From the NCBI GenBank assembly GCA_018660415.1, contig JABJKG010000013.1, positions 129,874-193,873 on the forward strand: a stretch of 64,000 bases of DNA, given 5' to 3'. The notes below the pieces were generated by a model. That model did no database searches. It had not been told where the DNA came from and saw only the letters and a program-made list of their open reading frames with translations. Position numbers and translations under genes: made by a program. How positions within the stretch are numbered: position 1 is the stretch's first letter; the number at the start of each line of letters is the position of its first letter. Shown in pieces: positions 10,040 to 57,956 of this stretch. The DNA comes from a bacterium (GTDB lineage: Bacteria; Babelota; Babeliae; Babelales; UBA12409).

Positions 10040-11227
10040 ATGTCCAAGCTTATCATTCTCATCATTGGTACACGCCCAGAAGCTATAAAAATGGCTCCCG
10101 TTTACTTTGCATTAAAGCGCAATAATATTCCGGTTAAAATATGTGCTACCTTTCAACATACCAACTTACTCCAAGAAGTGTTTGATATCTTTGGTATTGT
10201 TCCTGATTTTAATTTGAATATTATGAAAGCCGGTCAAGACATTTCTTACTTAACACAAGCTGTATTACGTGAGACTCGTATTGTATTTGAACAAGAAAAT
10301 CCATCACTGGTATTAGTACAAGGTGACACTACGACAGCGTTTGCAGCAGCATTATCAGCCTTTTATCTTAATATCGAAGTTGGACACATTGAAGCGGGTT
10401 TGCGTACGTATGATATATCATCGCCCTTTCCAGAAGAGTTTAATCGACAGGCGGTTAGCCTTTTTGCCAAGTTTAATTTTGCACCAACTTCGCTTGCTGT
10501 ACAAGCCCTTCAACGAAGTAATATCAAACAAGATTCAATTTTTTGTACTGGTAATACCATTGTCGATGCTTTATCGATCATGCAACGCAAGGTAGAACAA
10601 CAAGAAGTGGTGGTATCAAGCGCTTTAAAGAATTTAGTGAGTCAATGTGATACTAAAAACCAAAAGAAAATTTTGCTAACAGTGCATAGACGAGAATCAT
10701 TTAACGGTGGTATTAAACGGGTGCTGGAGACCATTAAAGAGTATGCCTTAGCTCATCCTGATGTTTTTTTCTTTTACCCCTTCCATCCTAATCCAGTAGT
10801 ACAGAAAGCCATACTTGAGGTCGGACTGAAGGATGTGAATAATATATATATGTGTGAGCCGCTACTTTATCCAGACTTGATTTACCTTTTAGTAAATATG
10901 GATCTAATACTGACTGATTCAGGAGGTATTCAGGAAGAAGCAATAAGTCTTGGAAAAACCGTGCTTGTAGCTCGAGATAAGACTGAGCGTATGGAAGGTG
11001 TTAATGCTGGTATTGCACACCTGGTTGGGACCAATAAACGTAAAATTAAAATGGCCTTGAATACGTATATTCGAAGAGAAAATGTTGAAGCAACTCAGAT
11101 ATATGGTAATGGGCGTGCTGCAGAAAAAATTGTTGAAATAATCGAACGTAATGGGAAAGCACATGAAAAAAGTTTGTGTAGTAGGACTCGGGTACATAGG
11201 GCTTCCAACAGCGATCATTGCTGCTGA
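10040..11227 (+). CDS. wecB: UDP-N-acetylglucosamine 2-epimerase (non-hydrolysing)
   Basis: Motifs GTRPEAIKMAPV, HIEAGLRT and TDSGGIQEEA. The 3' end runs 65-77 nt into wecC. Confidence 0.9.
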   Translation: MSKLIILIIGTRPEAIKMAPVYFALKRNNIPVKICATFQHTNLLQEVFDIFGIVPDFNLNIMKAGQDISYLTQAVLRETRIVFEQENPSLVLVQGDTTTAFAAALSAFYLNIEVGHIEAGLRTYDISSPFPEEFNRQAVSLFAKFNFAPTSLAVQALQRSNIKQDSIFCTGNTIVDALSIMQRKVEQQEVVVSSALKNLVSQCDTKNQKKILLTVHRRESFNGGIKRVLETIKEYALAHPDVFFFYPFHPNPVVQKAILEVGLKDVNNIYMCEPLLYPDLIYLLVNMDLILTDSGGIQEEAISLGKTVLVARDKTERMEGVNAGIAHLVGTNKRKIKMALNTYIRRENVEATQIYGNGRAAEKIVEIIERNGKAHEKSLCSRTRVHRASNSDHCC

Positions 11228-12458
11228 AAAAGGATATGAAGTTGTAGGTTTTGATGTGGATCAGGAGCGAGTTGATAGGATTAATAAGTATGATCCTGTT
11301 ATTGAAGAGCCTGAAATTATTGGACGACTTGAGTCGGTTTTAAAAAATAAATCATTTCGAGCTACTACTGAAATTGAGCCTGCAGATTATTATGTTGTAG
11401 CAGTTCCCACCCCCCTTACTTTACATCATGGTGTTGATCTTCAATTTGTATGGTCCGCCCTTGCGTCTATCATGCTAGTTATGAAGCCAGGAAGTACCGT
11501 TATCCTGGAATCAACAGTGCCCGTTGGGACTACCGAGAAAATGGTTCAACGTATTCATCGTTATAATAAAGAATGGAAAGTTGGTGTCGATTTCTTTGCC
11601 GCGCATTGTCCTGAACGTGTGTTGCCAGGCAATATTTTTTATGAACTAGAGCATAATGATCGCATTATTGGTGGCTATGATGACACATCATCCGAGCATG
11701 CAGCAGCATTTTATCGTTCATTTGTTACGGGTGAAATTTACATGAAAAGTGGTCGTCTTGCTGAAATGGTCAAGTTGATAGAAAACAGCTCTCGAGATGT
11801 ACAGATCGCTTTTGCTCACCAAGTAGCCTCTATGGCTGAAGCTGCCAAGCTTGATCCTTATGAAGTAATTGATATGGCCAATAAACATCCTCGTGTTAAT
11901 GTTTTAAATCCAACCAGTGGCGTTGGTGGACATTGTATCGCTATAGATCCATATTTTTTGATGGAATCATTTCCGCAACAAACACAGCTTATCGCTGCAG
12001 CACGACAAGTTAACAACTTACGAACACAACAGGTTATTGATCAAATTCACCATGCTGTAGCCGAATTTAAGCAACCTCCTACCTTGTTGTTGGCTGGTTT
12101 GACCTATAAAGCAGATGTTGATGACTTGCGTGAGTCTCCAGCGCTCAAGATTGCACAAACATTACAAGGATATGACAATATTAATTTCTTAGTAACTGAG
12201 CCCAATGTATCAAAAGCTAACTTACAGCAGTATTTTAAGCCAGAGCAAATAGTGTCTTTCGAGCAAGGAATTGAAAAAGTAGACATGATTGTATTGTTGG
12301 TAGCGCATAGTGTATTTAAAATAGATTTACATGTTCAAGTACTGCAGTCCAAGCATATACTTGATTATTGTGGTAGTTGGTTTAAGGCTATACAAAAAAC
12401 CGAAAACAGTTTTTATCGCCCTTCTGTAGTTGAAAAAAACTTTGATCAAAAGCTTTAA
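11151..12458 (+). CDS. wecC: UDP-N-acetyl-D-mannosamine dehydrogenase (UDP-sugar 6-dehydrogenase family)
   Basis: Rossmann VCVVGLGYIGLPTA and catalytic Cys context GVGGHCI. It lies directly after wecB. An alternative start is the ATG at 11163. Confidence 0.85.
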   Translation: MGKHMKKVCVVGLGYIGLPTAIIAAEKGYEVVGFDVDQERVDRINKYDPVIEEPEIIGRLESVLKNKSFRATTEIEPADYYVVAVPTPLTLHHGVDLQFVWSALASIMLVMKPGSTVILESTVPVGTTEKMVQRIHRYNKEWKVGVDFFAAHCPERVLPGNIFYELEHNDRIIGGYDDTSSEHAAAFYRSFVTGEIYMKSGRLAEMVKLIENSSRDVQIAFAHQVASMAEAAKLDPYEVIDMANKHPRVNVLNPTSGVGGHCIAIDPYFLMESFPQQTQLIAAARQVNNLRTQQVIDQIHHAVAEFKQPPTLLLAGLTYKADVDDLRESPALKIAQTLQGYDNINFLVTEPNVSKANLQQYFKPEQIVSFEQGIEKVDMIVLLVAHSVFKIDLHVQVLQSKHILDYCGSWFKAIQKTENSFYRPSVVEKNFDQKL

Positions 12459-12554: not shown

Positions 12555-14720
12555 ATGAGACAAGTATTCCTAAATAAGGAGGCTTTATCTATTAAAGAGG
12601 TATGCCAGCCTTTATTAGATGACTATTCAGTTTTAGTTTCCGTTACTTACTCCTTCATGAGTACCGGAAAAGGACTAGCCAATGTATTACAGTCCAATCA
12701 ACAACACTATTCAGGAGGTATTCCTGAAAAAATAAGACATCTTGTGCATCTTATTTCGCATCAAGATACAGGTCCGGCTAAAAACATTATAAAAGACTCT
12801 GGCAGTTATATTCCTCTTGGACAGTCATGTTCTGGTGTTATCATTGCCATCGGCAAAAAAGTACAAAAATTTCGTATTGGCGACTATGTGGCATGTACGG
12901 GCGATGGACTTGCCAACCATGCCGATGTTGTTTGTATTCCTGAAAAATTAGCCGTTCGTATTGAAGACGAAAATTTTCTCAAGGAAGCCTGTATAACCGG
13001 TATTGGTGCTATGGCACTGCAGAGCGTTCGACGTGCAAGTATAGAACTAGGAGACTTTGTTGCTATTGTTGGACTGGAGACACTAGGTCAACTTATGGTA
13101 CAACTGGCTAAGCTTTCAGGGGCGCGGGTTATTGCCTTTGATACGGAGCCTACACGGCTTGAGCTTGCAAGAAAGTCTGGTGCCGAGCATGTGTTTAATT
13201 TGAACGATAAAGACTTTTCTCAAACGATTAAATCGCTAACCTCATCTCATGGGTTGGATCGCGTTATTATTTCACCAGATTGTTTTTGTGATAATATTGA
13301 CGAGCTTTTTCTTGATCTTACACGCAAAAAAGGAACAATTGTCGTTGCTGGAAATAAGAAAGCAAAGTTTAACCAAGAGTCATCATATCAAAAAGAAATT
13401 AATGTTTTATTTTCATTTTCCCATGGTCCTGGGCGTTATGAGCAAGACTATGAGTATGGTGGATATGATTATCCCTATGCTTTTGTTCGATGGTCAGAAA
13501 ATAGAAATTTACAGCTGTTTGCTAATATGATTGTTCAAAAACAATTGCGGCTTGAGCATTTATTAGAAAAAGAGGTTCAGTTGAGTGAATTGACTAACCT
13601 TTTGGATCAGCGAAATAACGATGGCATTGGATTTGTTTTAGACTACGACAAAAAGGATGAAAAAGACAGTGGTGCATGTCCGGTTCAACTGTTAAAAAAG
13701 AACTTGGATTCTGGCTCATTCATCCCTGCTCGTTATGATCGTAAGGTTAAAGTAAGCTTTTATGGGCTTAATGGTGTAACACAAAATGGTATACTTCCAA
13801 CCATGGCTGGACTGAAAGATTTTGCGATTGATCGAATTGTTGATCGAAACATATCTCATGCATTAAACACAGCAAATAAATATCGTGGAGCGGTGCCATT
13901 AACGGGTGGCCTTGAAATTTTACGTGATATTGATCAGACTGATGCGATTTTTTTTGGCTCACTTAAGGGGGTTTCTCTTGAGAATTTTATGACCATATTA
14001 GAACAGCAAAAAAGCCTGTTTATTACCCATCCGCTGGCTAAAAAAGAATCAGATATAAGAGCTATAGAAGATTTTTTTGAAAAATCTCCTGAATCAAAGT
14101 TGTTTATTTGTTTTAATAGAACCTACTCCCCTTTCATTAAAAAAATAAAAACACAAATTGATCAGCGCTCAGTTAAGCCAATGATGATGAATTATCGAGT
14201 TAATCTTAAGGCCGTTGATAGGGTTCAAAAAAAATCAGATCAAGAAGGAAGTATTATTGCACGGGCATCACATATTATTGATGTTCTTTGTTACTTAAAT
14301 GATTCCAAGCCGGTAAGCATATCTGTGGAGGCGTTGTCGCCACGAGTTAATCATATTTTTCCTACAGATAATTTTAGTTGTCAGATTAGTTTTGCCAATG
14401 GTTCAGTTTGTAGCATTCTTTTTACCGCTCTTGGTTATGAAGATAGTGGCAATGAGCGTCTCGAGATTTTTTATGATTCTAAAACTATTGTCATGGAAGA
14501 TTATGTTCGCTTGACTGGTTTTGGGTTACCACAGACGTTTGACGAACTAGTGCGTGAGCCAGACATGGGTTATGGAAAGATGCTAGAAGAGTATTTGAAG
14601 TACATGAATTTGCCAAAGCAAGATCTTTTATCTTCTATTGTGCGTTGGAATACGGTTCAAAGTTTAACTTTAGCGGTTGATGAGCTGGCATGCCAGGGTG
14701 GTGGTGAAAAGACGGTTTAA
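12555..14720 (+). CDS. Bi-domain oxidoreductase (MDR/zinc-ADH-like N-terminal half fused to a Gfo/Idh/MocA-like C-terminal half)
   Basis: 721 aa. The N-terminal half resembles a medium-chain dehydrogenase (GDYVACTG, Rossmann GLETLGQLMVQLAKLSGARVIAFD). The C-terminal ~330 aa has a second dinucleotide-type fold. Confidence 0.6.
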   Translation: MRQVFLNKEALSIKEVCQPLLDDYSVLVSVTYSFMSTGKGLANVLQSNQQHYSGGIPEKIRHLVHLISHQDTGPAKNIIKDSGSYIPLGQSCSGVIIAIGKKVQKFRIGDYVACTGDGLANHADVVCIPEKLAVRIEDENFLKEACITGIGAMALQSVRRASIELGDFVAIVGLETLGQLMVQLAKLSGARVIAFDTEPTRLELARKSGAEHVFNLNDKDFSQTIKSLTSSHGLDRVIISPDCFCDNIDELFLDLTRKKGTIVVAGNKKAKFNQESSYQKEINVLFSFSHGPGRYEQDYEYGGYDYPYAFVRWSENRNLQLFANMIVQKQLRLEHLLEKEVQLSELTNLLDQRNNDGIGFVLDYDKKDEKDSGACPVQLLKKNLDSGSFIPARYDRKVKVSFYGLNGVTQNGILPTMAGLKDFAIDRIVDRNISHALNTANKYRGAVPLTGGLEILRDIDQTDAIFFGSLKGVSLENFMTILEQQKSLFITHPLAKKESDIRAIEDFFEKSPESKLFICFNRTYSPFIKKIKTQIDQRSVKPMMMNYRVNLKAVDRVQKKSDQEGSIIARASHIIDVLCYLNDSKPVSISVEALSPRVNHIFPTDNFSCQISFANGSVCSILFTALGYEDSGNERLEIFYDSKTIVMEDYVRLTGFGLPQTFDELVREPDMGYGKMLEEYLKYMNLPKQDLLSSIVRWNTVQSLTLAVDELACQGGGEKTV

Positions 14721-15390
14721 AAGGTAGCCTTTACGTTTTTTTTTAGCTTTGTATTGCTTTAAACAATCAAGTGTTTTTTTCCCGTAGGGCATAAAGGCTT
14801 TTTCAAGATTAAATGTTTGCTGCTTAATTTCATGTTCTCTTTTGCAAAGAAATTTTTCAGTAACCTCAGCCCAATTATTGATTATAAGGACAGGAAGATT
14901 TTTATCCATCTCCAGATATATATGATTCTGGGGCGATTGCCCGGCGTAATAGTACTGCACAATACAAAAAAATAAATCCATACAATTTTCATTTTATTTT
15001 ACTTTCTTGAGGACGTTTTAATTTTTAAAGGAAAGCACATATAAATTTTGTGTAGAGGTTATAAAGATATGAAAGAAAGATGCTAGAGTATGGGCAGAAT
15101 AACTATAATATAAAGTGAAATAAAAGAGAATTGAATACTATAGCTGGAGTATCAGTGTTGTGTTTTTTCTCATAAGAAGAGGGTTGATTTCAATTTTCAA
15201 TTAGTTTTGCAAATAGATCGGTCTACAGTATACTTTGGGTATATCTCATGGATCAGCAGCAGTAATGAACCTATTTTATAAATTCTATGAGTTCCCTTAG
15301 ATAAGACAAACTTATTCCGAGAGAAACCACATGACTGAGTTGGGGTGTTAAGGTAGTGGTACAAGCGGATTTATAAAATAGGAAGAGTTC

Positions 15391-16509
15391 ATGAAGAAGC
15401 TATTAAGTGTTGTATGTTTGATTTTCTGTGGTTCTTTGTATGGTATGCAAAAAAAAGCTATTATTTTTGGAGTTACCGGGCAGGACGGATCTTATTTAGC
15501 TGAATTGCTATTAAGCAAGGGGTATGAGGTTCATGGGGTTAAGCGCAGGTCTTCTTCCTTTAACACTTCTCGGTTAAATAGTTTGTATCAAGATTCTCAT
15601 GGTGAGAATGTTAGTTTTAAACTTCATTATGGTGATCTAACCGATTCTCTCAATATAACGAGCCTTTTACGAGAAATAGAACCAGATGAGATTTATAATC
15701 TTGGAGCTCAAAGTCATGTTCGGGTGTCATTTGATATTCCAGAGTACACCGGTAACTGTGACGGCTTAGGTACGCTTCGCATTTTAGAAGCAATTAGGTT
15801 TTTAGGGCTAGAGCAAAAAACAAAATTCTATCAAGCATCGACTAGTGAACTTTATGGATTAGTTCAAGAGATCCCTCAAAAAGAAACGACGCCTTTTTAT
15901 CCACGATCACCCTATGCTGTAGCTAAGATATATGGGTATTGGATTACCGTGAACTATCGAGAATCATATAATATGTTTGCGTGTAACGGTATTTTATTTA
16001 ATCATGAATCTCCTCGTCGTGGAGAAACTTTCGTAACCAAAAAAATCAGTATGGCTATTGCTAAAATTAAGTATGGTCTTCAGGATTGTTTATACTTAGG
16101 AAATATGGATTCCAAGCGTGATTGGGGTTATGCAGCTGATTATGTTGAAGCTATGTGGATGATGTTACAACAGGATAAGCCGCAAGATTTTGTTATAGCT
16201 ACTGGTGAAACTCACACAGTTCGGGAGTTTGTTGAAGTTGCTTGTAAAGAGGCTGGCATTGCTTTAACGTGGCAAGGATCTGGTCTTGATGAAGTAGGAA
16301 TTAATGCTTCTGGTAAAACAATAGTTAAAATTGATCCTCGTTACTATCGTCCAGCAGAAGTGGAATTTTTACTTGGAGATCCTTCAAAAGCTGAAAAAGA
16401 ACTTGGATGGAAGCCTAAGGTTTGTTTTAAAGAGTTAGTTAAGCGGATGGTTCAGTTTGATTTAGAACAGTGTTGTATGAGTAATAATGTACGTCGAAAC
16501 AAGGAATAA
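15391..16509 (+). CDS. gmd: GDP-mannose 4,6-dehydratase with an 18-aa N-terminal hydrophobic extension
   Basis: Motifs [22 protein letters not shown] and NHESPRRG. A Shine-Dalgarno-like AGGAAG lies 7 nt before the ATG at 15391. No such site precedes the internal Met at 15445. Confidence 0.93.
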
Positions 16510-16510
16510 C

Positions 16511-17503
16511 ATGAAAAAAACATATGTATTGATGATCGTCTTTTTATTTGTCACTATGGCTGAATGTGCTATGGATAAAAACGCAAGGATTTTTGTTGCT
16601 GGTCATAGAGGGTTAGTGGGCTCGGCATTGGTTAGAATCCTGGACGATCTTGGTTATCATAATTTAATATTACGGTCTCATGATGAACTTGATTTAACTG
16701 ACAAATTGGCTGTAGAAGAGTTTTTTGCGCAAGAAGAGCCGGATTATGTATTTTTAGCTGCAGCCAAGGTAGGGGGTATCGTTGGAAATAGCCGCTATCC
16801 GGCAGACTTTATATATGAAAACCTTCAAATTGAAACCAATGTGATTCATTCTTCCTATAGATTTGGAGTTAAAAAGCTCCTATTTCTAGGTTCATCTTGT
16901 ATATATCCGCGTATGTGTCCACAACCAATTAAAGAAGAGTATTTATTAAGTGACTATTTAGAGCCCACAAACGATGCCTATGCGATCGCAAAGATTGCTG
17001 GGATCAAAATGTGCCAATCGTATAATAAGCAGTATGGGACTAATTTTATAGCCTGTATGCCTACAAACCTTTATGGGCTTAATGATAACTTTGATTTAGA
17101 AATGTCGCATGTGCTTCCAGCTCTTATTGCAAAGGTTCAGAAAGCCAAGGCTAATGGCGATAAAAACTTTGTAGTTTGGGGGACAGGTCAAGTTAAACGA
17201 GAGTTTCTCTATGTTGATGATTTAGCTGAAGCATGTGTTTTTCTTATGAACAATTATGATGACAGTGATATTATTAACATTGGGACCGGTGAAGATGTAA
17301 CTATTGCTCAATTGGTGGAGGCTGTGAAAAGGGCTATAGGATATGACGGTGAAATTATTTATGATACTACCAAGCCGGATGGTACTCCTCGTAAGTTACT
17401 GGATGTAAGCAAAATAAATAATCTTGGGTGGAAGGCTAAGCATTCTTTAGCGGATGGTTTAGAGCTGACAACCAAATGGTATAAGCGGACCATTATCGGA
17501 TGA
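16511..17503 (+). CDS. fcl: GDP-L-fucose synthase (GDP-4-keto-6-deoxymannose 3,5-epimerase/4-reductase) with a 20-aa N-terminal hydrophobic extension
   Basis: Motifs RIFVAGHRGLVGSA and YAIAKIAG. AAGGAA lies 6 nt before the ATG at 16511, which is 1 nt after the gmd stop. Confidence 0.9.
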   Translation: MKKTYVLMIVFLFVTMAECAMDKNARIFVAGHRGLVGSALVRILDDLGYHNLILRSHDELDLTDKLAVEEFFAQEEPDYVFLAAAKVGGIVGNSRYPADFIYENLQIETNVIHSSYRFGVKKLLFLGSSCIYPRMCPQPIKEEYLLSDYLEPTNDAYAIAKIAGIKMCQSYNKQYGTNFIACMPTNLYGLNDNFDLEMSHVLPALIAKVQKAKANGDKNFVVWGTGQVKREFLYVDDLAEACVFLMNNYDDSDIINIGTGEDVTIAQLVEAVKRAIGYDGEIIYDTTKPDGTPRKLLDVSKINNLGWKAKHSLADGLELTTKWYKRTIIG

Positions 17504-17530
17504 TTGATCTTTTTTAAATAAAGGTTGCAT

Positions 17531-18406
17531 ATGAAGAGTAAAGCGGTAACAGCTATTACTTTATGCTTTTTGCAGTTAACGTTTGGAGACTCTGCTATAA
17601 GTTATCAAATTTCCGGTGGGAGACTCGGAGATCAGTTGATTTCCTACTGTATAGCTAAGGAGATTTCTCTTAAATATGACATTCCCTTATTGTATAAACC
17701 CTTTAAGTATTCAGATCAGCTTCAATTATCATTATTAGATAAGTCTTTTTCTTCAAATTTTGATCACTATACAACTGTGGAAATAGGGCATGATCTTCCT
17801 AAAGAAATTAAAAAGAAAAAGAAGAAGGCAACGCATATTTTATATGAAGTGGCTTTTCAGCACTGGAGAGCTTCTACTCCTGATAAAGCATGGTATGGGG
17901 TTTGTTCTGACCAATCATTTCGGCAGGAACTAAGAAAATACATTGCACCATGTTCAGATATTTCTGTTGTAAAGCCACCAAAAGGTGTAATCAGTGTAGC
18001 GATGCATGTTAGAACTGGTGATGGCTATGATCCAGGGAGCTTAGTGGATAGTTATTATGAAAAATTTCCTAAAGATGATTTTTTTATTGATCAAATTCTG
18101 CGGTTAAATGAGATATTTAGAGGTAATTCATTATATATTTATATTTTTACGGACTCTTTGAATACGGGTGTAATTAAAGCTAAATTTCAGTCGGTTTTTA
18201 GTGATTATCCAAGTATAGTTTTTAATTGTAAGGACGGAGACAATGGCTGGGATAATAATGTACTGGAGGACTTGTTTTCAATGCCTTACTTTGACTGTTT
18301 GATTCGTCCAAAATCAGGTTATTCGGTCATTGCTCAAGCCATAGGGAATTATAAAGTTGTTTTATATCCAGGAGGGGAAATCAATAATTTAACAACTTCG
18401 AATTGA
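17531..18406 (+). CDS. Putative fucosyltransferase (GT11/GT23/NodZ-type superfamily) with signal-anchor
   Basis: Motifs GGRLGDQLISYCIA (compare GGLGNQMFQYA), HVRTGD (compare HxRRGDY), IFTDS and LFSMPYFDCLIRPKSGYS. It lies directly downstream of gmd-fcl. Confidence 0.5.
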   Translation: MKSKAVTAITLCFLQLTFGDSAISYQISGGRLGDQLISYCIAKEISLKYDIPLLYKPFKYSDQLQLSLLDKSFSSNFDHYTTVEIGHDLPKEIKKKKKKATHILYEVAFQHWRASTPDKAWYGVCSDQSFRQELRKYIAPCSDISVVKPPKGVISVAMHVRTGDGYDPGSLVDSYYEKFPKDDFFIDQILRLNEIFRGNSLYIYIFTDSLNTGVIKAKFQSVFSDYPSIVFNCKDGDNGWDNNVLEDLFSMPYFDCLIRPKSGYSVIAQAIGNYKVVLYPGGEINNLTTSN

Positions 18407-18417
18407 CGATCTGGAAA

Positions 18418-19557
18418 TTAGTTCCAATCGATATCCCAAATATCCAACTTCTTGAATAAGGATTTTCCATACTGTTCTAACCATACTTGTACTTGTATTT
18501 TTTGCCAACTTTTGGCATGAGCATAAATATCCTTGTCAAAAAACTTATATTCTGAAAACCAGCTTTGTGGAGAAACTTTAGTTTCTAATCCAACTTCATT
18601 TTTGCTTTCACCGTATATTTTATTTATTTTATAAGGGTTCATTTTTGGATTACGAATTCGCTCTAAACATCGATACCATGCTTGTTTTATTAAAAGATTC
18701 TCCCAATTAACAAATTGGAAATGCATGAGGCCCACAGAGTAATCTCCTTGATAACGGGTGGTGATTACACTAGTAAATTGGTTTGTTGAATAGATTGTCC
18801 AAGCTTTAGTGGCTTGCGCTTGAGGAGATAAATCTGCATATTTTTCTTGTACGAAGTGTAGAACTTGAGTCAAGCGTATGCGTTGCTGGTAGTTTAAATG
18901 TATAACTTGTTGTGGCCTAAAATGCAGTAAAGGATCTTCAAGAGTAAGGTTATATCTTTGTCCTGTGAGATTCAGGTTCGGTGATCTAGAGCAGTGGATG
19001 AAGTTAGAGTTATATGAGCAGCCAGGCTGATCACAAAATATACAGTCATTAAGACTTCCAGACCAAGGAGAGCTATCGTATCGATATTGTTCTGTAGATC
19101 GCCACAGTTGAATCCAAGTAGCGTGTAGAACATCACCAGGTTGTAAAGATAAAATTTTATTACGAAGGAAATTTTTATGTAGGCAGTTACTAGTGAAAAT
19201 TTCATCAGCATCAATAACGATGAAATGGGTTCCACCAGCCTTTCTACCCGCCTCTAGTAGTTTGTTTTTATCTCCAGGTTCATCTCTAAACCAAACCGTT
19301 TTTTTGATTATTTGTACAATATTACATTCGTTAGCTAGTGACTCTAGTATTGGAACTGTTTTACCATCATCCGATGCATCATCAAGAACTATAATAGCAT
19401 CTGTATATAAAGATAGTGCTTTGAGACATTGTCCTACTATATCAGCTTCGTTCCTTACTGCCACAAGCCCAATGATTTTGTGTGGTTTTTTAATTTGATT
19501 GTATGCATTTATACTTAGAACGAAGAAGGAAAATAAGAGTATACTTAATTTTTTCAT
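18418..19557 (-). CDS. GT2-like (GT-A fold) glycosyltransferase with signal-anchor
   Basis: Motif VAVRNEADIVGQCLKALSLYTDAIIVLDDASDDG...FIVIDADE (DxD). Confidence 0.6.
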   Translation of the reverse strand: MKKLSILLFSFFVLSINAYNQIKKPHKIIGLVAVRNEADIVGQCLKALSLYTDAIIVLDDASDDGKTVPILESLANECNIVQIIKKTVWFRDEPGDKNKLLEAGRKAGGTHFIVIDADEIFTSNCLHKNFLRNKILSLQPGDVLHATWIQLWRSTEQYRYDSSPWSGSLNDCIFCDQPGCSYNSNFIHCSRSPNLNLTGQRYNLTLEDPLLHFRPQQVIHLNYQQRIRLTQVLHFVQEKYADLSPQAQATKAWTIYSTNQFTSVITTRYQGDYSVGLMHFQFVNWENLLIKQAWYRCLERIRNPKMNPYKINKIYGESKNEVGLETKVSPQSWFSEYKFFDKDIYAHAKSWQKIQVQVWLEQYGKSLFKKLDIWDIDWN

Positions 19558-19575
19558 AGTTTTAACCTATTTTAT

Positions 19576-20472
19576 TTATTTAAATTTTATAAAATCTTTA
19601 AATTTATAGCGCATGCCATTTTGGGAAATAAATATAGACGTTTCTGGTAGAAGTGCTTGACTATCCCAATGTACATGGATTGGGTCTAATGGATTGTTCT
19701 TTGATTCGAGAGGAATCCATCCTTGAAGGGAAATATCAAAATTTTGAATATTCGCATAGATACTGTATAAGGGTTGATCATGGCGTGCTGCTCCTAATCC
19801 AAGAGGTGAAGATCCATCGTCTTCAAAAATACTTATATTTGAAGAAAGTTGGTATATAGGGAGAACATAATCATCATAAACTTTACGAGAGAGACCTTGC
19901 ATGCCGGCTGAAATACTCAGTGCGTTTGGGCTTAAAAGATGATGTTTGTGCTCGGAAAATTGTTCATTTATTATATTGTGTAACACATTTTTTGTTAATC
20001 GACAGGCAATGTCATGACCACAATCTACCAGGAAATATCCTTTGTTTTCTATATGCTCAAATAGAGTATCTAGTGGTTGTAAAACGGAAATGCCTGCATC
20101 GAGATAAAGCATATAAGGGAAAAGCTCAAGCCCTTGCTTTATGGCTACTGGCTTCCAAGTAAAACATCCTCGCACTTTTCGGGTAGGTCCTGTGAGCATT
20201 CGTTCAAACATTTGCGGATTAGTTTTTTCAAGGTTGTATACTTGTACCTTATTAATGGTTTGTAAGAGTTTGCATTGTTTCTTTGTAAATCCTAGATCAA
20301 AAACTGCAATTTCTTGTAAGTTACCAAAGTTTGTTTTATGAATACTTCCAATTAAATTGAGTAATAGTTCAAAATGTTCCTTATCTGCACTGGTGCAGTA
20401 ATATTGAGGGATAGGGTAACTAAGTTGGGTTACAGAAACTAAGAGAAAGATAAATAATTTAGTGAATTTCAC
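19576..20472 (-). CDS. Unassigned GT-A-like protein, paralogue of 29025-29933, with signal peptide
   Basis: Shares QLSY.IPQYYCT..D......LLNLIGSIHKTNF, WKPV.IKQ.L..FPY..YLDAG and ARHDQPL.SI with the ORF at 29025-29933. Confidence 0.6.
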   Translation of the reverse strand: MKFTKLFIFLLVSVTQLSYPIPQYYCTSADKEHFELLLNLIGSIHKTNFGNLQEIAVFDLGFTKKQCKLLQTINKVQVYNLEKTNPQMFERMLTGPTRKVRGCFTWKPVAIKQGLELFPYMLYLDAGISVLQPLDTLFEHIENKGYFLVDCGHDIACRLTKNVLHNIINEQFSEHKHHLLSPNALSISAGMQGLSRKVYDDYVLPIYQLSSNISIFEDDGSSPLGLGAARHDQPLYSIYANIQNFDISLQGWIPLESKNNPLDPIHVHWDSQALLPETSIFISQNGMRYKFKDFIKFK

Positions 20473-20636
20473 TAATTTCCTTTCTTGAGGAATTTACACA
20501 GGATATTCTTTCCAAAAATTATCAAATTATTCCAAAAACTACAACTTGATTTTTGTTGACATAAAATGGTTAAATCTAATAAAGATTAATATATTTTAGT
20601 TTTTAAAATATAAATAAGGAATTTACTTATGGGTAA

Positions 20637-20906
20637 CACAAGCCAAGTCTTTGGAATAAGATAGGAAAGGACATCCACTGGAGTGTTGTTTTTATAGATC
20701 ATCGTCCGGGTGAAAGGCGTATTGAAGATGTGCGTCGGCTAAGAAAGAATACAGATATTTTTATTGTGCATGATACAGAAGAGGCTGGATACAAATACGA
20801 ACCAACCTTTTCGTCTTTCAAGTCTGTATATAGATTTTCTAGGTATAGGTCTCTCACAACTGCAGTAAGTGATACGGTGGATGTTTCAAAACTGTTTGAT
20901 TATTAG
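20637..20906 (+). pseudogene. Start-less 89-codon reading frame, probable 3' remnant of a methyltransferase-like gene
   Basis: The frame is open from the stop at 20634 to the TAG at 20904 and has no ATG/GTG/TTG near its 5' end. It encodes ..WSVVFIDHRPGERRIEDVRRLRKNTDIFIVHDTE.., which resembles the FLDAHW...VIIVDD region of the ORF at 33941-34897. Confidence 0.35.
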
Positions 20907-20910
20907 TATT

Positions 20911-20946
20911 CAAAATGGCCCGACTACAAGTCGGGCCATTTTTGTT
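20911..20946. terminator. Bidirectional rho-independent terminator
   Basis: Stem aatggcccgac, loop tacaa, stem gtcgggccatt, flanked by caaa upstream and tttg downstream. It sits between convergent reading frames. Confidence 0.8.
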
Positions 20947-20963
20947 ATAAAAGTAAGATATGT

Positions 20964-21761
20964 TTAATTAAGTTTGGCAATTGATAGCATTTGATCAATC
21001 ACGTGTTTGTATTGTTTATATGGACGAGAACAATGAGCATCGATATAGCGTTGGTTTCTAAGATGTGAAGCATTGAATTTCATATTATCACCACGGTCTA
21101 TTCTTGGACCTACATTATGGTTTAATTTAACGCAATCTTGTGAGTATCTTTGCCAGCGAGTTAAGCATTCATATAGCATGCGTTCATCAGTAAACCAGCC
21201 CATTCCAAGTGTGTGCCAGTGACTCATAAGAGCTCGCATATCATCAAAACTCTCTACTTGGAAAATTTCCTTAAAAGTACTTCCTAAAGCTGCATTGTAG
21301 CACATTGGAAATGCATTTGGATTAGGCCCGTATGCAGCATTGCGGTATACTATAAACTTATGATCAGGTATTTTTCGAATTGGCTTAGTAAAGTATTTTA
21401 ATTGTAGTGGAAACATATCAATATCGGACAACAGACAGAAATCTGTTGGGAATAAGGCAGGTATCAAAACTCGAATTACTTGGGCCTGGTATCCGGTATT
21501 TAATCCCTCTACTGGATCTATATAAACAACATCACCATATGTTTCATCAATTGGATTGTTTTCATCCCTTGTTCCAATAAATGCTAGAGTTGGTCGAACC
21601 GTATTGTTGGAAATTCGGCACCAAGCTTTTGATACCAGTGGCCAAAACTCTAGATATGTAGGATTATTATCTGATGCAAAAATCACACGATTTATTTGTG
21701 CAGTTTGAATATTTTGGCATGTCAAAGCAAGTGCCAAAATAAAGAAAAGTCCCTTTTTCAT
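20964..21761 (-). CDS. Putative glycosyltransferase of unassigned family with signal peptide
   Basis: 265 aa with signal MKKGLFFILALALTC. A DxD-like motif LLSDIDMFPL follows a hydrophobic strand. The call rests on context within the glycan island. Confidence 0.45.
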   Translation of the reverse strand: MKKGLFFILALALTCQNIQTAQINRVIFASDNNPTYLEFWPLVSKAWCRISNNTVRPTLAFIGTRDENNPIDETYGDVVYIDPVEGLNTGYQAQVIRVLIPALFPTDFCLLSDIDMFPLQLKYFTKPIRKIPDHKFIVYRNAAYGPNPNAFPMCYNAALGSTFKEIFQVESFDDMRALMSHWHTLGMGWFTDERMLYECLTRWQRYSQDCVKLNHNVGPRIDRGDNMKFNASHLRNQRYIDAHCSRPYKQYKHVIDQMLSIAKLN

Positions 21762-22099
21762 TATTTCCCCCTATTTAGAAAATATCATTACTATATGACT
21801 ATAAATACTAATTTGTCTCCCCCAAGACTTGCACGACCCCTTCAGTTTTTTTTGTTATAACCTATAAATTAAGCTTAATCGATAGTAATTATCGAGAGCA
21901 ATGATTAAAACAAAGCTGCGCACCCATTACCAATAGTAATTATTTTAAATTGAAGTATGTAAAGTGCCGCTACAGAGTTTTTGTATGCATTGCCTTGTAT
22001 GAGCTTCTTTCTTGCTGCAATATCTTTTGCATGTTTTATTTAGAGAGTTGGATATAATAAAGAAAAGAACGAAAAACTAAATAAGGACGGAGCAAGTTA

Positions 22100-23509
22100 A
22101 TGCATTTTAAATATATGATGTTGATTATAGGTTTGTTAAGTACTTTTCATATTACAAAAGGCGATGGTCAAAATAGAGACACTCCCTTGTATGTTCCCGG
22201 TGAGTATCTAGAAGAGTCTCCTTTGGTGCTAGTTAATGCACAGAGATTTGATCTTATGGCGAAGTATTTGTTTGCACAGTCGTATATTATGAACTTAAAA
22301 ACAGATTGGTTTTCTTGTTTGTATGAATCACATTTAAGAGTTTGGAATGGTTGCCATGAAGAGTATCCTCCGTCTTCTATTCTCAATTTTAATTGTGCTC
22401 GAGAATATAAAGAAAAAAGAGGAATAAGAGAGTATATTGAGTCATTTAGTGCCTTGTTAGATTCTATACGGACAAAAGGATTTGATCTTTCTCAGTCAAT
22501 TATTCCTACTAATATACACAAGCAAATTAAAGATGGGGCACATCGAGTTTCAGCTTGCTTGCTATTTGATAAGCCGGTTAAATATAAGAAATTTGATGAT
22601 TCTAATTTCATAGCTGCTACAGCAGAATACTTTAAGAAAGCGGGTCTAGAAGATGGGTTTTTAGATGCTATGGCATTGCAGTATTGTAAATTGAAGTCTA
22701 ATACCTATGTTATTAATCTTTTCCCAGACGCTTTGAAGAATGAAGCTGAAGTGTATAAAATATTGTCCAAGTACGGGACAATTGTATACGAAAAAAATGC
22801 TACTTTGTTTAAAAATGGCCCATTAAATCTTATTCGCATGTTATATGAAGAGCCATTTGAAGGGTGGAACAATAACTTTGCTAAGGAAAAAAGCGAGCAT
22901 TGTTTTTTTGGAAAACATAAAAAACATCGTATGAGATTTATTTTGTTTGAGTGTGATTCTTTAGAAAAAACTACGAAATGCAAGTCTGAAATCAGAGCCT
23001 TCTTTAAGAGTTATGACGTTATCCACATCAATGATACACATGAGGAAAGTATTTTATCGGCTCAAACAGCGTTTAATAATAATAGTCTACATTTTATCAA
23101 CCATGCCTCTCCTAAGCACTTTAAAAACTTTACCGATCTTTTTGGTCGGTTTAAGCAATGGATCGCTAGAGAGGGTTATTCCCTAGATTATTTTTGTATT
23201 GATACGAGTGCGGTTTTGTCTGTTTATGGCATTCGAGAATGTGCTGATTTAGATTATTTGCATTCTGGTAGCCCAATTGATTCAGGAATTGTTGGTATTG
23301 ATGATCACGACTGTGAATTAAGATACCATGCAAGTTCAAAGGATGATATTGTTTTCAATCCAGAGAACCATTTCTACTTTAAAGGTGTAAAGTTTTGTTC
23401 TTTGAACACTATAAAAAAATTGAAACAAAAACGGAATGAAGTAAAAGATCAAAAAGATATTAAGATGATTAACGAGCTGCTAGCAAGTAAAAAAGCAGCT
23501 CGTTGTTAA
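22100..23509 (+). CDS. Hypothetical two-region protein (ParB/Srx-like DGAHR region plus minimal nucleotidyltransferase-like region) with signal-anchor
   Basis: Motifs KDGAHRVSACLL and CIDTSAVLSVYGIRECADLDYL (an hG[GS]-x(9-13)-DxD-like pattern). Confidence 0.4.
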   Translation: MHFKYMMLIIGLLSTFHITKGDGQNRDTPLYVPGEYLEESPLVLVNAQRFDLMAKYLFAQSYIMNLKTDWFSCLYESHLRVWNGCHEEYPPSSILNFNCAREYKEKRGIREYIESFSALLDSIRTKGFDLSQSIIPTNIHKQIKDGAHRVSACLLFDKPVKYKKFDDSNFIAATAEYFKKAGLEDGFLDAMALQYCKLKSNTYVINLFPDALKNEAEVYKILSKYGTIVYEKNATLFKNGPLNLIRMLYEEPFEGWNNNFAKEKSEHCFFGKHKKHRMRFILFECDSLEKTTKCKSEIRAFFKSYDVIHINDTHEESILSAQTAFNNNSLHFINHASPKHFKNFTDLFGRFKQWIAREGYSLDYFCIDTSAVLSVYGIRECADLDYLHSGSPIDSGIVGIDDHDCELRYHASSKDDIVFNPENHFYFKGVKFCSLNTIKKLKQKRNEVKDQKDIKMINELLASKKAARC

Positions 23510-23510
23510 C

Positions 23511-24890
23511 TTATGCTTTGAGTTTCTTTTTTGAATTGAAATAGTAAAAATAATAAGGTTTTTTTATTTTTATTTCTTTTTTTAACAAGCCGGAATTGCA
23601 TATTTGCATTGCCCAGGGGGTATCTTCAGCATAGGAGAGCTCAGGGAAAGCAAACTTGCATGCTATTGATTTTTTTATTGGGTTAAGGTGATTTGGCGGT
23701 CGATAATAAGCTTTTTTGTCATCACTATATTTTTTATATTTTATAGAATGAATAAATGGCTTATCAAATTTATTGTTAACAAAATAATGGCCAGTTAAGC
23801 TAACACAATCGGGATTGTTTAAAATTGCTTTGTAGATGATTTCGATATAGTCTTCAGAAATTTTGTCATCATCATCAATAAATGAAATATATTCCCCGGT
23901 ACAGTCGGCTACTAATGCATTACGCTTAGTTCCTACCGATAAATCAGTGTTATCCCTAAAGAAAACTATTTCAATTTTGTCTTCGAGGCAATTTTTTTGT
24001 ATTTGTTGTTCCAGTTGCGTTAAGAGACTACTAAATGTTTTTTTTCTTGAGTCTAGCGTAGGGATTAAGATGCTCCATTTAATTTGAGAAGTTTGCATAT
24101 AAAAATTATGGTCTCGTCTAGTCCAGAAAGTAACTTTATCTTCATCGTGGAAAGAATCATTATGGCGATAAAGTTCATCCATTTTAGTTGCATCATTACC
24201 ACCCCAAGCTGGATGTCGATGCTCTAATAGAGTTTGATGTACATAGCGTTCTTTTTGTAACAGCTTTGCAATTGCAGTAAATTCATTGTCTGAACAAAGA
24301 GACTTGTAGACGGGGTTATAAAGAAACCCAAATTGTCGGTAATATTTGTTATCCATTATTGAATAGGTAATAATTTCTTCTCCAGCGTGCCCATCATAGA
24401 AGTTTAAAACTCCGTTTCCTGTGGGGAAAAATTTTTGCATGTTCTCAGCAATAACAAGGTCAAACCCTTTCGTAACAGGATACATGTCATCACTTGCAAG
24501 AAGAATAATGTCAAAGTCATCTATATGCTTATCTACATCAGCATTGCATGCAGATATTTTCCCATTATTATTGCCAAAATAATAACTCAAGTTTGGGAAT
24601 TGTTTGAATTTATTTATACTTTTGGGGCAATTCATTGTTTTGTCATCTATATCACAAGAAATAACAAAATGAACAGGAATTTTGTGCGAAAGATGGTGAT
24701 AAAAACGTTTGAGATTTTTGAAAAATAGATCGGGACGTGATCTTGTAGGCCATTTAATCAAAAGGCGTGGTTGGGTGTTATTATGAAAACATACATCGTT
24801 AGAAGAAATTTGTTTAACAATGGGTACAATCCTATAAGGAGTGTATAATCCAATACATAAAAGAATCACAAAAATGGATTTAATTTGCAT
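23511..24890 (-). CDS. Two-domain glycosyltransferase: N-terminal unassigned domain (paralogue of 25709-26512) plus C-terminal GT2
   Basis: The N-terminal half aligns by eye with ORF 25709 (LLIK.PTR.R, ISCD..D..MN, LLASDDM.P, GVLNF.DGH, FGF.Y.P.Y). The C-terminal half has ILIPTLDSR...FIDDDD. Confidence 0.65.
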   Translation of the reverse strand: MQIKSIFVILLCIGLYTPYRIVPIVKQISSNDVCFHNNTQPRLLIKWPTRSRPDLFFKNLKRFYHHLSHKIPVHFVISCDIDDKTMNCPKSINKFKQFPNLSYYFGNNNGKISACNADVDKHIDDFDIILLASDDMYPVTKGFDLVIAENMQKFFPTGNGVLNFYDGHAGEEIITYSIMDNKYYRQFGFLYNPVYKSLCSDNEFTAIAKLLQKERYVHQTLLEHRHPAWGGNDATKMDELYRHNDSFHDEDKVTFWTRRDHNFYMQTSQIKWSILIPTLDSRKKTFSSLLTQLEQQIQKNCLEDKIEIVFFRDNTDLSVGTKRNALVADCTGEYISFIDDDDKISEDYIEIIYKAILNNPDCVSLTGHYFVNNKFDKPFIHSIKYKKYSDDKKAYYRPPNHLNPIKKSIACKFAFPELSYAEDTPWAMQICNSGLLKKEIKIKKPYYFYYFNSKKKLKA

Positions 24891-25012
24891 TATTACTACT
24901 TTCTAAATTCATAAAAATATTAAATATTATTTCCAGTTAAAACTTGCAAAAACTATAAAATTTGTAAAGGTTTTATATTATGTATAAAGGGTTGTAAAAA
25001 GGAAAAACTACT

Positions 25013-25690
25013 ATGAAAAGTTGGTTGCTGTTAGGGCTGTTGCTAGGGGTATACTTTGTTGTTGAGTCTAAGTTTTACAGTCAATGTAAGCAGGATCAAT
25101 TTGTTTATGAAACTTTTTTTAAGGATAAAAAGGATGGTTTTTTTGTTGAAATAGGGGCAGATGATGGTATTACATTTAGTAATACCTTATTTTTTGAAGA
25201 ACTTGGCTGGAAGGGAATATGTATTGAGCCTAGACCTACAGCTTTTACAAAGTTAATACAAAATAGACACTGTTTTTGTGATAAGCAAGCTATTGCGGCC
25301 AAAAAAGGAAGTCGAGAGTTTTTGGTTGTAGAAGGTTATTGTCAAATGCTGAGTGGATTTGTTGATACTTATGATCCAGTTCATTTACAACGGATAAAAA
25401 GAGAGTTAAAACAATTTGGTGGCACGAGTTATGTAGAGACTGTTCCATGTATTTCTTTTAACGAACTATGTGACACGTATAATGCTAAAAAAATAGATTT
25501 GTTAAGTGTTGATACTGAGGGTAGCGAGCTGGAAATTCTTAAGCTCATTGATTTTGATCATATTTATATACAGGTGATTGTAGTAGAGAATTTATATGGA
25601 AGTAAGGCTATTAAGGAATTACTCACAAAAAATGGGTACTCATTGGTCAAGGTGCTAGATAGTGATGAAGTTTATTATAAGCCACACTAA
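25013..25690 (+). CDS. FkbM-family SAM-dependent methyltransferase with signal-anchor
   Basis: Motifs FVEIGADDGITFSNT and DLLSVDTEGSELEILK, the Methyltransf_21/FkbM signature. Confidence 0.75.
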   Translation: MKSWLLLGLLLGVYFVVESKFYSQCKQDQFVYETFFKDKKDGFFVEIGADDGITFSNTLFFEELGWKGICIEPRPTAFTKLIQNRHCFCDKQAIAAKKGSREFLVVEGYCQMLSGFVDTYDPVHLQRIKRELKQFGGTSYVETVPCISFNELCDTYNAKKIDLLSVDTEGSELEILKLIDFDHIYIQVIVVENLYGSKAIKELLTKNGYSLVKVLDSDEVYYKPH

Positions 25691-25708
25691 AGGTGGGTAA
25701 GGAGAGTA

Positions 25709-26512
25709 ATGGGTAGATGCAGATTGGTGGTTGGAATATTGTTTTTATTGAGTTTATCAAGTTTAACCGAGCCTTTGAATGCAGCGGAATTGCTTATAAA
25801 ATTTCCTACACGTGAACGAACCAAGAAGTTTTTTAAGTGCTTAGATCAGTATTATAAACTTCTTTCTAAAAAGCATTCATATCATTTTTTAATTTCTTGT
25901 GATGCAAATGATGTAAAGATGAATAATGCAAAAGTGAAAGAGCGTTTTAAGAAATATGACAATTTAACCGTTATTTATGGGGAGCGGGTTGGTAAGATTG
26001 GTGCATGCAATCGGGATATGGATTTGGCTCCAGATTTTGATATTGTACTGCTTGCTAGTGATGATATGTGGCCTTATACACAAGATTATGATGATATTAT
26101 TATCCAGCATATGGAAAAAGAATTTCCTGACTTTGATGGGGTTCTGAATTTTGCAGATGGTCATCCTAAAGGCTCTCATGTACTTAACACCTATCCCATT
26201 CTAGGTAAAAAATACTTTAATCGCTTTGGGTTTATATATCATCCCGCCTACCTATCCTATTTTTGTGATTTAGAATTAGCATTGGTTTCAAGGTTGTATG
26301 GTAAAGAGGCAATTGTTGATATAGAGCTGTTAACACATAACAACCCTGCTTTTACTAATGAAAAAGATGCCCTATATAATTTTAACCAGAAACTATATCA
26401 TAAAGATGAACAGATCTTTATGGAACATCTTACTAATAAGTTTGAATTGGATTTTCTTACATTAGAGCAAGTGGATTATTTAGAATTCTGTAAGTCTAAA
26501 ATGGATGAATAA
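25709..26512 (+). CDS. Stand-alone copy of the unassigned GT-like domain found in 23511-24890
   Basis: Strong AAGGAG site before the start and a signal-like LVVGILFLLSLSS. Paralogy as described for 23511-24890. Confidence 0.6.
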   Translation: MGRCRLVVGILFLLSLSSLTEPLNAAELLIKFPTRERTKKFFKCLDQYYKLLSKKHSYHFLISCDANDVKMNNAKVKERFKKYDNLTVIYGERVGKIGACNRDMDLAPDFDIVLLASDDMWPYTQDYDDIIIQHMEKEFPDFDGVLNFADGHPKGSHVLNTYPILGKKYFNRFGFIYHPAYLSYFCDLELALVSRLYGKEAIVDIELLTHNNPAFTNEKDALYNFNQKLYHKDEQIFMEHLTNKFELDFLTLEQVDYLEFCKSKMDE

Positions 26513-26533
26513 TTTTATTTCAAGGAAAATCGT

Positions 26534-27979: not shown

Positions 27980-27999
27980 TTTTAAAAAAGGAAAATATA

Positions 28000-29019: not shown

Positions 29020-29024
29020 ATAAC

Positions 29025-29933: not shown

Positions 29934-29996
29934 AAAGAATCCTTAGGCTAGTGAAAAATCTAATTTTTTTAAGGTAATCACAACTCAAAAAAGTTG

Positions 29997-30758: not shown

Positions 30759-30760
30759 GT

Positions 30761-57925: not shown

Positions 57926-57956
57926 GATTTTGTTTTGTTTAAAATGGAGAAGAAAA

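Follow-up and report, generated by a model that had tools for sequence, protein, structure and literature searches.

Within a 64,000-nucleotide stretch of contig JABJKG010000013.1 (the whole of which we call the window), the adjacent, co-oriented genes gmd (15391-16509) and fcl (16511-17503) encode, on the forward strand, proteins that we assign to the GDP-fucose pathway, GDP-mannose 4,6-dehydratase (Gmd) and GDP-L-fucose synthase (Fcl), and each reading frame opens with a hydrophobic N-terminal extension ahead of the canonical enzyme. We think it probable that both extensions are genuine, translated signal peptides of the Sec type, and that the pathway is exported and fed by GDP-mannose and NADP(H) of the host. 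An earlier reading made from the letters of the window (the sequence-only reading) had pointed to signal-peptide-like N-termini on these two enzymes; the placement of Shine-Dalgarno (SD) motifs, conservation of the extensions in kind among relatives, and their Sec-type anatomy uphold that observation.

Judged by their family profiles, the first protein is Gmd and the second probably Fcl, the pair that makes up the GDP-fucose pathway. The catalytic core of Gmd (15445-16509) is intact: the protein scores 593 bits against the TIGR01472 equivalog (cut-off 415), where its residues 21-361 span positions 1-342 of the profile, and 518 bits (1e-155) against PF16363, and it aligns with residues 2-353 of E. 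coli Gmd (PDB 1db3), the extension falling outside the alignment. Its GxxGxxG and S/T-E...Y-x3-K residues (G27, T29, G30, Q31, D32, G33, S150/T151, E153, Y175 and K179) are invariant or nearly so in alignment A1. The Fcl core (16571-17503) matches PF01370 (6e-63) and the GDP-L-fucose synthase family NF047922, residues 24-325 of the protein spanning positions 2-302 of the 308 in that profile; the latter score (478 bits) is just under the cut-off of 500, and the next family reaches only 83 bits. Fcl is also 66-71% identical to proteins named GDP-L-fucose synthase by their sources. The first ~20 residues of both proteins lie outside their enzyme family profiles. An AlphaFold2 model of full-length Gmd (mean pLDDT 83) gives values of ~50 or less to residues 1-17, shows a detached helix at residues 2-13, and starts the Rossmann β1 strand from residue 22.

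Checked on the sequence and its translation, gmd has an SD-like AGGAAG (15380-15385; ΔG −4.2 kcal/mol) spaced 5 nt from the ATG at 15391, and translation from this codon gives the 18-codon extension (15391-15444) and then the canonical core from 15445, ending with the TAA at 16507-16509. The SD-like AAGGAA of fcl (16501-16506; −5.4 kcal/mol) lies within the 3′ end of gmd and precedes an ATG at 16511, 1 nt past the gmd stop, from which the extension MKKTYVLMIVFLFVTMAECA (16511-16570) is followed by the core MDKNARIFVAGHRG from 16571 up to the stop at 17503. The sequence-only reading had described both arrangements in this way, and had stated that the internal methionines at 15445 and 16571 are without a recognisable ribosome-binding site; the energies of pairing with the anti-SD sequence agree, being −2.2 and −1.5 kcal/mol at these codons, against medians of −2.0 over all 1331 ATGs of the window and −5.7 over 17 annotated starts. 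By these references the upstream SDs are ordinary, not strong, and the internal methionines are at background level. Two more in-frame ATGs of fcl, at 16487 (overlapping gmd) and 16532, have an SD before neither.

Annotations of the two genes place their starts differently. Prodigal calls a Gmd of 372 amino acids (aa) and an Fcl of 323 aa (start 16532), the JGI call for Fcl is 330 aa, and the NCBI PGAP annotation uses the canonical starts (354-aa Gmd, 310-aa Fcl), a trimming of both proteins that hides the feature in public records. The PGAP calls would be correct if the feature were a start-site artefact, with translation beginning at the internal methionines, the enzymes remaining cytoplasmic, and an AT-rich untranslated leader merely looking hydrophobic because its codons specify F, I, L and K. 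In keeping with this, both window proteins have a methionine exactly where canonical Gmd and Fcl begin, and in DNA of ~36% GC a stop-free run of 18-20 codons would arise by chance at a frequency that we estimate ourselves at ~0.25. However, in the window, as in relatives, SD motifs stand solely at the upstream starts, which disfavours an internal start; the fcl ATG sits 1 nt past the gmd stop; and the 354-aa Gmd call in ENA comes from a contig cut at 15443. Moreover, the same ordered succession of n-, h- and c-regions is found on about 15 neighbouring genes and not on housekeeping genes. Together with the behaviour of relatives and of unrelated Gmd loci, these points make an artefact of this kind very improbable.

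Relatives were compared by inspecting the N-termini of the 120 best Gmd and the 120 best Fcl homologues, the closest database Gmd being ≤74% identical. A canonical, leaderless start is found in 85-95% of the top Gmd and Fcl homologues. Hydrophobic N-terminal extensions are present in 10 of the 120 Gmd proteins (the window's own included) and signal-like ones in 12 of the 120 Fcl proteins. None of the nine other Gmd proteins with such an extension has a methionine at the core boundary, and two of the Fcl proteins (P0335 and P0358) have none at or near the core start. One further Gmd (P0051) was set aside: it is 91% identical to signal-less proteins and keeps the canonical methionine, and its apparent extension was put down to a gene call that reaches too far upstream. 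The background was taken from 156 unrelated Gmd loci (79 from GTDB genomes and 77 from IMG/VR contigs) by counting, permissively, each locus with an upstream start in frame and a hydrophobic 10-mer; three qualify, all of which keep the canonical methionine, and the start is canonical and leaderless in the other 153.

Equivalent extensions of the n/h/c type, mostly with no methionine at the core boundary, occur on Gmd and/or Fcl in six loci from relatives of the same lineage that have neighbouring genes in common with the window (L086, L087, L088, L089, L091 and L092), as in the Gmd N-termini MKLKFLQLYIFLLSATLNIADDNLQNSTKKTALIFG (L086), MNFNYKMLLVFLLAANNICFAQDNTQNTAKKVALIFG (L087), MNSKKTVLLYLLFIVGSSELSAKVALIFG (L088) and MKRIGFLSLLLCSMIIESKVALITG (L092). 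Because an internal methionine is usually lacking in these relatives, the extension must be translated there. An SD precedes the upstream start in every locus scored (−3.0 to −8.7 kcal/mol), and core-boundary methionines score between +0.3 and −2.2. Three of the loci (L086, L087 and L088; 26-40% GC) have the neighbourhood of the window, namely the gene for a 721-aa dehydrogenase or its flanks, and L088 also has the order AlaRS-HIT...SHMT-EF-P seen in the window. The closest relative by shared neighbourhood is L092, which is 70% identical in a fragment of the 721-aa dehydrogenase and whose Fcl starts MKKVFALVFISVSVLCGFEKSSKIFVAGH. The other three loci, L089, L091 and L092, also have the gmd-fcl pairing; they were chosen solely for a signal-bearing Fcl, and in all three the adjoining Gmd proved to be signal-bearing, a cross-check that is independent of how the loci were picked. 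Comparison with related genomes had been set beforehand as a test of the sequence-only reading, and the extension turned out to be neither absent from relatives nor unconserved: by this comparison it is conserved in character, not in sequence, across distant relatives.

A search of genome contigs with Gmd returned only relatives of ≤70% identity from unrelated phyla and no close genome; a metagenome contig search with an alignment of the lineage-specific 721-aa dehydrogenase gave only weak ADH-like matches (24-35% over ~140 residues) and no relatives; and a viral contig search with Gmd found phage and viral Gmd genes only. The loci from the first and the last of these searches supplied the background set given above. 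Across 15300-17600, three contigs (L081, L082 and L083) match the window letter for letter and offer no population-level variation for testing the extensions by synonymous/non-synonymous change. In a neighbour-joining tree of Gmd cores, the signal-bearing proteins form two groups of five plus singletons; core identity is ~72-77% alike inside and outside the signal-bearing set, and the tree is compatible with a single origin or with several. In L084/L085, at 10001-11086 (P0035, P0021 and P0010), a signal-bearing Gmd, MKKIFILLLIGIVPLLAEPKKALIFG, lies in a different gene context, amid genes for PagL, LicD, patatin, photolyase and a signal-bearing GT10 protein; the feature may extend beyond the lineage of the window.

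The methionines retained in the window also bear on a reading that is compatible with export, in which the upstream start would yield an exported form of each enzyme and the core methionine a cytoplasmic one. Among ~8 lineages of signal-bearing Fcl (58-69% mutual identity), the methionine is exact in four and within two residues in two more, and the positions beside it vary more than it does. Such a methionine, at the canonical start or no more than two residues from it, is kept in P0261, P0269, P0321, P0291, P0295, P0354, P0296, P0313 and P0286, in addition to the window Fcl (16571). Against two isoforms, no SD is found at the internal methionine in the window, L089 or L091, and among signal-bearing Gmd proteins a boundary methionine occurs in the window's only. 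L089 encodes both a signal-less canonical Gmd (MKKALITG) and a signal-bearing one, which shows the two forms to be distinct products there and meets the need for two compartments by two separate genes. Phylogenetic inertia could account for the retained methionine, and we consider the production of two isoforms improbable.

The anatomy of the extensions was scored by simple rules of our own, not by a trained predictor, on 24 Gmd and Fcl N-termini (two from the window and 22 from relatives), and by these rules they are predicted to have Sec-type signal peptide anatomy. The n-region has a charge of +1 or +2 in 23 of the 24, the exception being the L089 Gmd, which has no n-region; hydrophobic stretches across the set span 8-18 residues (a Sec h-region has about 7-15), with mean Kyte-Doolittle values of 1.7-3.6; and −3/−1 sites followed by acidic or polar residues are usual, as in CFA/QD, LRA/DM and LLA/EP among relatives (a slash marks the predicted cut). 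Both window proteins begin with an MKK n-region (+2), followed in Gmd by an uncharged stretch of 16 residues that includes polar residues of the c-region, and in Fcl by a 14-residue h-region with a candidate cleavage site at TMA/EC. The same pattern is found on the lineage's own periplasmic chaperone OmpH/Skp, and it is absent from AlaRS, GlyA, EF-P, Ndk, UvrB, transaldolase, WecB, a GT4 protein, and canonical Gmd and Fcl. A reading as signals for twin-arginine translocation (Tat) was rejected, as no n-region has a twin-arginine (RR) motif, and a lipoprotein reading was rejected because there is no lipobox, the h-region cysteines lacking the L-[AS]-[GA]-C context.

A hydrophobic segment of this kind might instead remain uncleaved as an N-out/C-in anchor that tethers Gmd, Fcl and the glycosyltransferases (GTs) encoded beside them at the cytoplasmic face of the membrane, where they would work on lipid-linked intermediates and cytoplasmic GDP-mannose. 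Substrates and enzymes would then stay in their conventional compartment, the locus has a Wzx-like flippase and resembles a surface-polysaccharide cluster, and the window Gmd has lysines at either end of its hydrophobic stretch (MKK...MQKK), which makes the charge balance ambiguous. However, at 8-17 residues the hydrophobic cores would make a short membrane span and are typical of cleavable signals, and the N-tails are positive (MKK, MKR or MNKK), so that by the positive-inside rule the N-terminus would lie inside and the C-terminal domain outside; the two features together favour the N-in/C-out orientation over an anchor. Many relatives, moreover, have good −3/−1 sites followed by acidic residues, and N-termini of the same type are carried by proteins that have been read as secreted host effectors in this phylum (PMC4378268, PMC6561590). 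We therefore consider a cytoplasm-facing anchor unlikely.

The organism to which the window belongs fits a reading as export. The best named matches of its UvrB are to Candidatus Babeliales (86%) and candidate division TM6 (84%), followed by many to Candidatus Dependentiae, which places the genome in Dependentiae (TM6, Babeliales); the locus has genes in common with other low-GC contigs that bear ankyrin repeats, and the same contig is found in several metagenome assemblies and NCBI metagenome-assembled genomes. Scans of the window for Rfam families and tRNAs gave no matches, and neither rRNA nor tRNA genes are present. Members of the Dependentiae live in protists as obligate intracellular parasites and send a very large part of their proteome through Sec. 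The space outside such a bacterium is the cytoplasm of its host, which answers the objection that the substrates of Gmd and Fcl are cytoplasmic. Of the machinery relevant to secretion, a PilN-like gene (1320-1865) is all that is visible in the window, and we know of no sequence motif for substrates of the type II secretion system. In Babela, signal peptides were found on 79 of 126 ankyrin proteins and the type II system was the sole secretion system found (PMC4378268); in C. destructans, 44% of coding sequences have signal peptides and no lipopolysaccharide (LPS) genes were found (PMC6561590); and Babeliales are without most LPS genes (PMC4776705).

On the reading that we favour, Gmd and Fcl would be translocated by Sec, probably cleaved, and folded outside the bacterial cytoplasm, so that the GDP-fucose pathway would have moved into the exported set along with the glycosyltransferases that use its product, and in relatives along with ManC, UDP-sugar dehydrogenases, a NUDIX protein and sulfotransferases. 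Host GDP-mannose and host NADP(H) would be turned into GDP-fucose for co-exported GT10 fucosyltransferases. The co-substrates of the signal-bearing set (GDP-mannose, NADPH, UDP-sugars, S-adenosylmethionine and 3′-phosphoadenosine-5′-phosphosulfate) are all metabolites of the eukaryotic cytosol. The site of action might be the periplasm or cell surface, or else the host cytosol, reached by the type II system or by vesicles. Paralogue pairs, a flippase, and gene content that varies between relatives lean towards decoration of the bacterium's own envelope, and the presence of the same signals on host-directed effectors of the phylum leans towards release. The locus also encodes enzymes that are signal-less, which suggests that a cytoplasmic stage (WecB, WecC, the 721-aa dehydrogenase and a fusion of Wzx with a GT2 domain) would precede the external elaboration.

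Several points weigh against export. Besides the PGAP calls and the methionines kept exactly at both canonical starts, the SDs upstream of gmd and fcl are moderate, the signal anatomy rests on crude rules, and the cleavage options in the window Gmd are weak (LYG/MQ, with L at −3, or CGS/LY). Gmd needs tightly bound NADP+, the Sec system exports unfolded chains, and periplasmic enzymes that bear cofactors usually travel by Tat; the cofactor would accordingly have to be picked up after export, and NADP(H) would be needed outside. Retention in the periplasm would, in addition, call for GDP-mannose and NADPH to cross the outer membrane.

The genes around the pair share the feature widely: nearly every product encoded between 15391 and 34897 has a signal-like N-terminus. 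Directly downstream of fcl, on the same strand, lies a gene for a 291-aa protein (17531-18406) that has a signal-like N-terminus (MKSKAVTAITLCFLQLTFG/DS) and could be placed in no family, having no match in Pfam, NCBIfam or PDB sequences; the gene probably shares a transcription unit with gmd-fcl. It is followed by a glycosylation island on both strands (18418-31798), made up of glycosyltransferases, a methyltransferase and proteins of unknown family. By their domain matches, GT2 enzymes are encoded at 18418-19557, 23511-24890, 26534-27979 and 29997-30758; two GT8-like proteins at 19576-20472 and 29025-29933; an FkbM methyltransferase with a signal-like N-terminus at 25013-25690; and two GT10 fucosyltransferases, the likely consumers of GDP-fucose, at 28000-29019 (forward strand) and 30761-31798 (reverse strand). 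All of these island products, those of unknown family included, start with MK and then a hydrophobic run, with the exception of the GT2 protein at 29997-30758. The GT8-like proteins, the GT10 proteins, and the GT2 proteins at 26534-27979 and 29997-30758 form three pairs of paralogues.

Beyond the transferases, the reverse strand encodes a Wzx-like flippase (Polysacc_synt; PF01943 at residues 10-287) fused to a GT2 domain (PF00535 at residues 468-626) at 31771-33918; it is polytopic, has no cleavable signal, and is a candidate for linking the cytoplasmic steps of assembly with the external ones. The last gene of the island before glyA, at 33941-34897 on the same strand, encodes a 318-aa protein, likewise assigned to no family, that has a signal-like N-terminus and a homologue in L086 (12571-13593). 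Within the same locus, a contrast set of three signal-less enzymes lies upstream of gmd on the forward strand: WecB (10040-11227), WecC (from 11151 or 11163 to 12458) and the 721-aa dehydrogenase of the ADH_zinc_N/GFO type (12555-14720).

Two stretches of this upstream region were looked at more closely. Homology to a fused 851-aa WecB-WecC protein in L089 changes frame at ~11158/11160, so that wecC must start at 11151 or 11163 (MGKHMKKVCVVGLGYIG, Rossmann motif), which overlaps a non-homologous tail of wecB by ~65-77 nt; the start called by Prodigal, 11256, loses the Rossmann motif, and its NCBIfam match begins at profile position 31-35. The 670 bp upstream of gmd (14721-15390) hold no convincing gene, the one candidate being a 103-aa reading frame on the reverse strand (14670-14981) that was called by Prodigal and has no family match, and this stretch may serve the gmd-fcl unit as its promoter region; scans of 14600-18600 for consensus promoters and terminators gave results at shuffle level.

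In relatives, signal-like N-termini are also found on ManC, UDP-sugar dehydrogenases, a NUDIX hydrolase, a HIT paralogue, sulfotransferases, and GT6, GT32 and GT90 proteins. L089 (NCBI GCA_041156605.1) encodes between 6080 and 12217 a signal-like ManC, a signal-less Gmd, a signal-bearing Fcl and Gmd, and sulfotransferases and a GT6 protein with signals, an arrangement that suggests parallel cytoplasmic and exported routes to GDP-sugars within one genome. The HIT paralogue, in L088 (7174-7812), adjoins a signal-less copy. Among families that are normally cytoplasmic, signal-like N-termini also occur on a MutS_V-domain protein in L087 (1879-3621) and on the NUDIX hydrolase in L091 (9403-9981).

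Elsewhere in the window, a protein with ankyrin repeats and a signal-like N-terminus is encoded just upstream of the sugar genes (8162-8845); these features are typical of the effectors described for this phylum. A 215-aa protein consisting of an FtsH-type M41 protease domain alone, also with a signal-like N-terminus, is encoded at 44023-44670; a full-length FtsH-like AAA+M41 protein follows directly downstream (44756-46306). Two proteins without a Pfam match, at 54497-56440 and 57930-58826, have the motif EPLRQEYLRIM or EPLRQRYLEIL just past a signal-like N-terminus, and the pair looks like a paralogous secreted family.

Taken more broadly, the genes described here raise the tentative possibility of a Golgi-like system outside the cytoplasm of these Dependentiae, in which Sec-exported enzymes of nucleotide-sugar interconversion (Gmd, Fcl, ManC, UDP-sugar dehydrogenases and NUDIX) would act together with a large and variable set of methyltransferases, sulfotransferases and Leloir glycosyltransferases, likewise exported. 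Their compartment would be in chemical continuity with the host cytosol, and they would draw on its GDP-mannose, UDP-sugars, NADPH, S-adenosylmethionine and 3′-phosphoadenosine-5′-phosphosulfate. Such a system would yield a fucosylated coat for a bacterium without LPS, or modified molecules of the host. Sugar-nucleotide chemistry in bacteria is taken to be cytoplasmic, and lipid-linked donors serve for the steps beyond the inner membrane, since nucleotide sugars are unavailable there. A Golgi-like system would break the rule that keeps nucleotide-sugar-dependent steps of bacterial glycan synthesis on the inner membrane's cytoplasmic side, and the occurrence of predicted export signals on Gmd, Fcl and transferases throughout the lineage suggests that intracellular parasites, with host sugars and NADPH outside them, can drop the cytoplasmic constraint. 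Metabolically minimal Dependentiae could, if this is true, nonetheless make a surface glycan that is complex and variable, and the lineage would supply versions of Gmd and Fcl that are naturally compatible with Sec.

The statement of the sequence-only reading that no exported GDP-fucose pathway is known agrees with the open literature that we searched (subscription journals were not covered), in which we found none reported, no paper that links Dependentiae or Babelota to glycosyltransferases, fucose or GDP-mannose, and none on a Gmd with a signal peptide. The most direct point of reference is the colanic acid cluster of E. coli, where gmd and wcaG/fcl, encoding the same two enzymes, are likewise adjacent and co-oriented; the E. 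coli proteins, like canonical Gmd and Fcl in general, differ in starting 5-9 residues ahead of GxxGxxG, with no hydrophobic leader. A nicotinamide-cofactor enzyme that acts outside the bacterial cytoplasm has a precedent in the glucose-fructose oxidoreductase of Zymomonas mobilis, a periplasmic protein with bound NADP that is exported folded by Tat with a twin-arginine signal. Unlike that enzyme, the proteins described here have no RR motif, and the cofactor would be loaded after export. Golgi glycosyltransferases such as those of family GT10 resemble the transferases of the island (GT10, GT8 and GT2) and of relatives (GT6, GT32, GT90 and sulfotransferases) in being Leloir-type enzymes with an N-terminal hydrophobic targeting segment, which in the bacterium, too, would place the catalytic domain outside the cytoplasm. 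The Golgi enzymes are type II proteins with an uncleaved anchor of ~20 residues, supplied with nucleotide sugars by SLC35 transporters, and the accompanying Gmd and Fcl are cytosolic; in the window the segments are shorter, and the enzymes that convert the nucleotide sugars carry them too.

Closest in ancestry is the Sec and type II secretome of Babela massiliensis and Chromulinavorax destructans, which belong to the same phylum and have the same kind of N-terminal signal, as the signal-bearing ankyrin protein of the window illustrates. That published secretome differs in its content, being made up of ankyrin, ubiquitin-system, protease and nuclease effectors (PMC6561590, PMC4378268), and in the papers that describe it we found nothing relevant under glycosyl-, fucose, mannose or nucleotide sugar. 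The kind of signal and the large Sec secretome of the phylum are thus already known; what is new is the predicted application of this export route to a pathway that is strictly cytoplasmic elsewhere. The closest functional analogue is found in Chlamydia trachomatis, whose enzymes of glycogen metabolism are secreted to the lumen of the inclusion and fed by host UDP-glucose (Gehre et al. 2016, PMC4829429): there, as proposed here, normally cytoplasmic enzymes of nucleotide-sugar metabolism act outside the cell of an intracellular bacterium. The Chlamydia system uses type III secretion, makes a storage polymer and has experimental support, whereas that of the window is predicted from sequence. 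If our reading of the window is true, secreted enzymes fed by host nucleotide sugars would extend from Chlamydia to a second phylum, another secretion route and another pathway.

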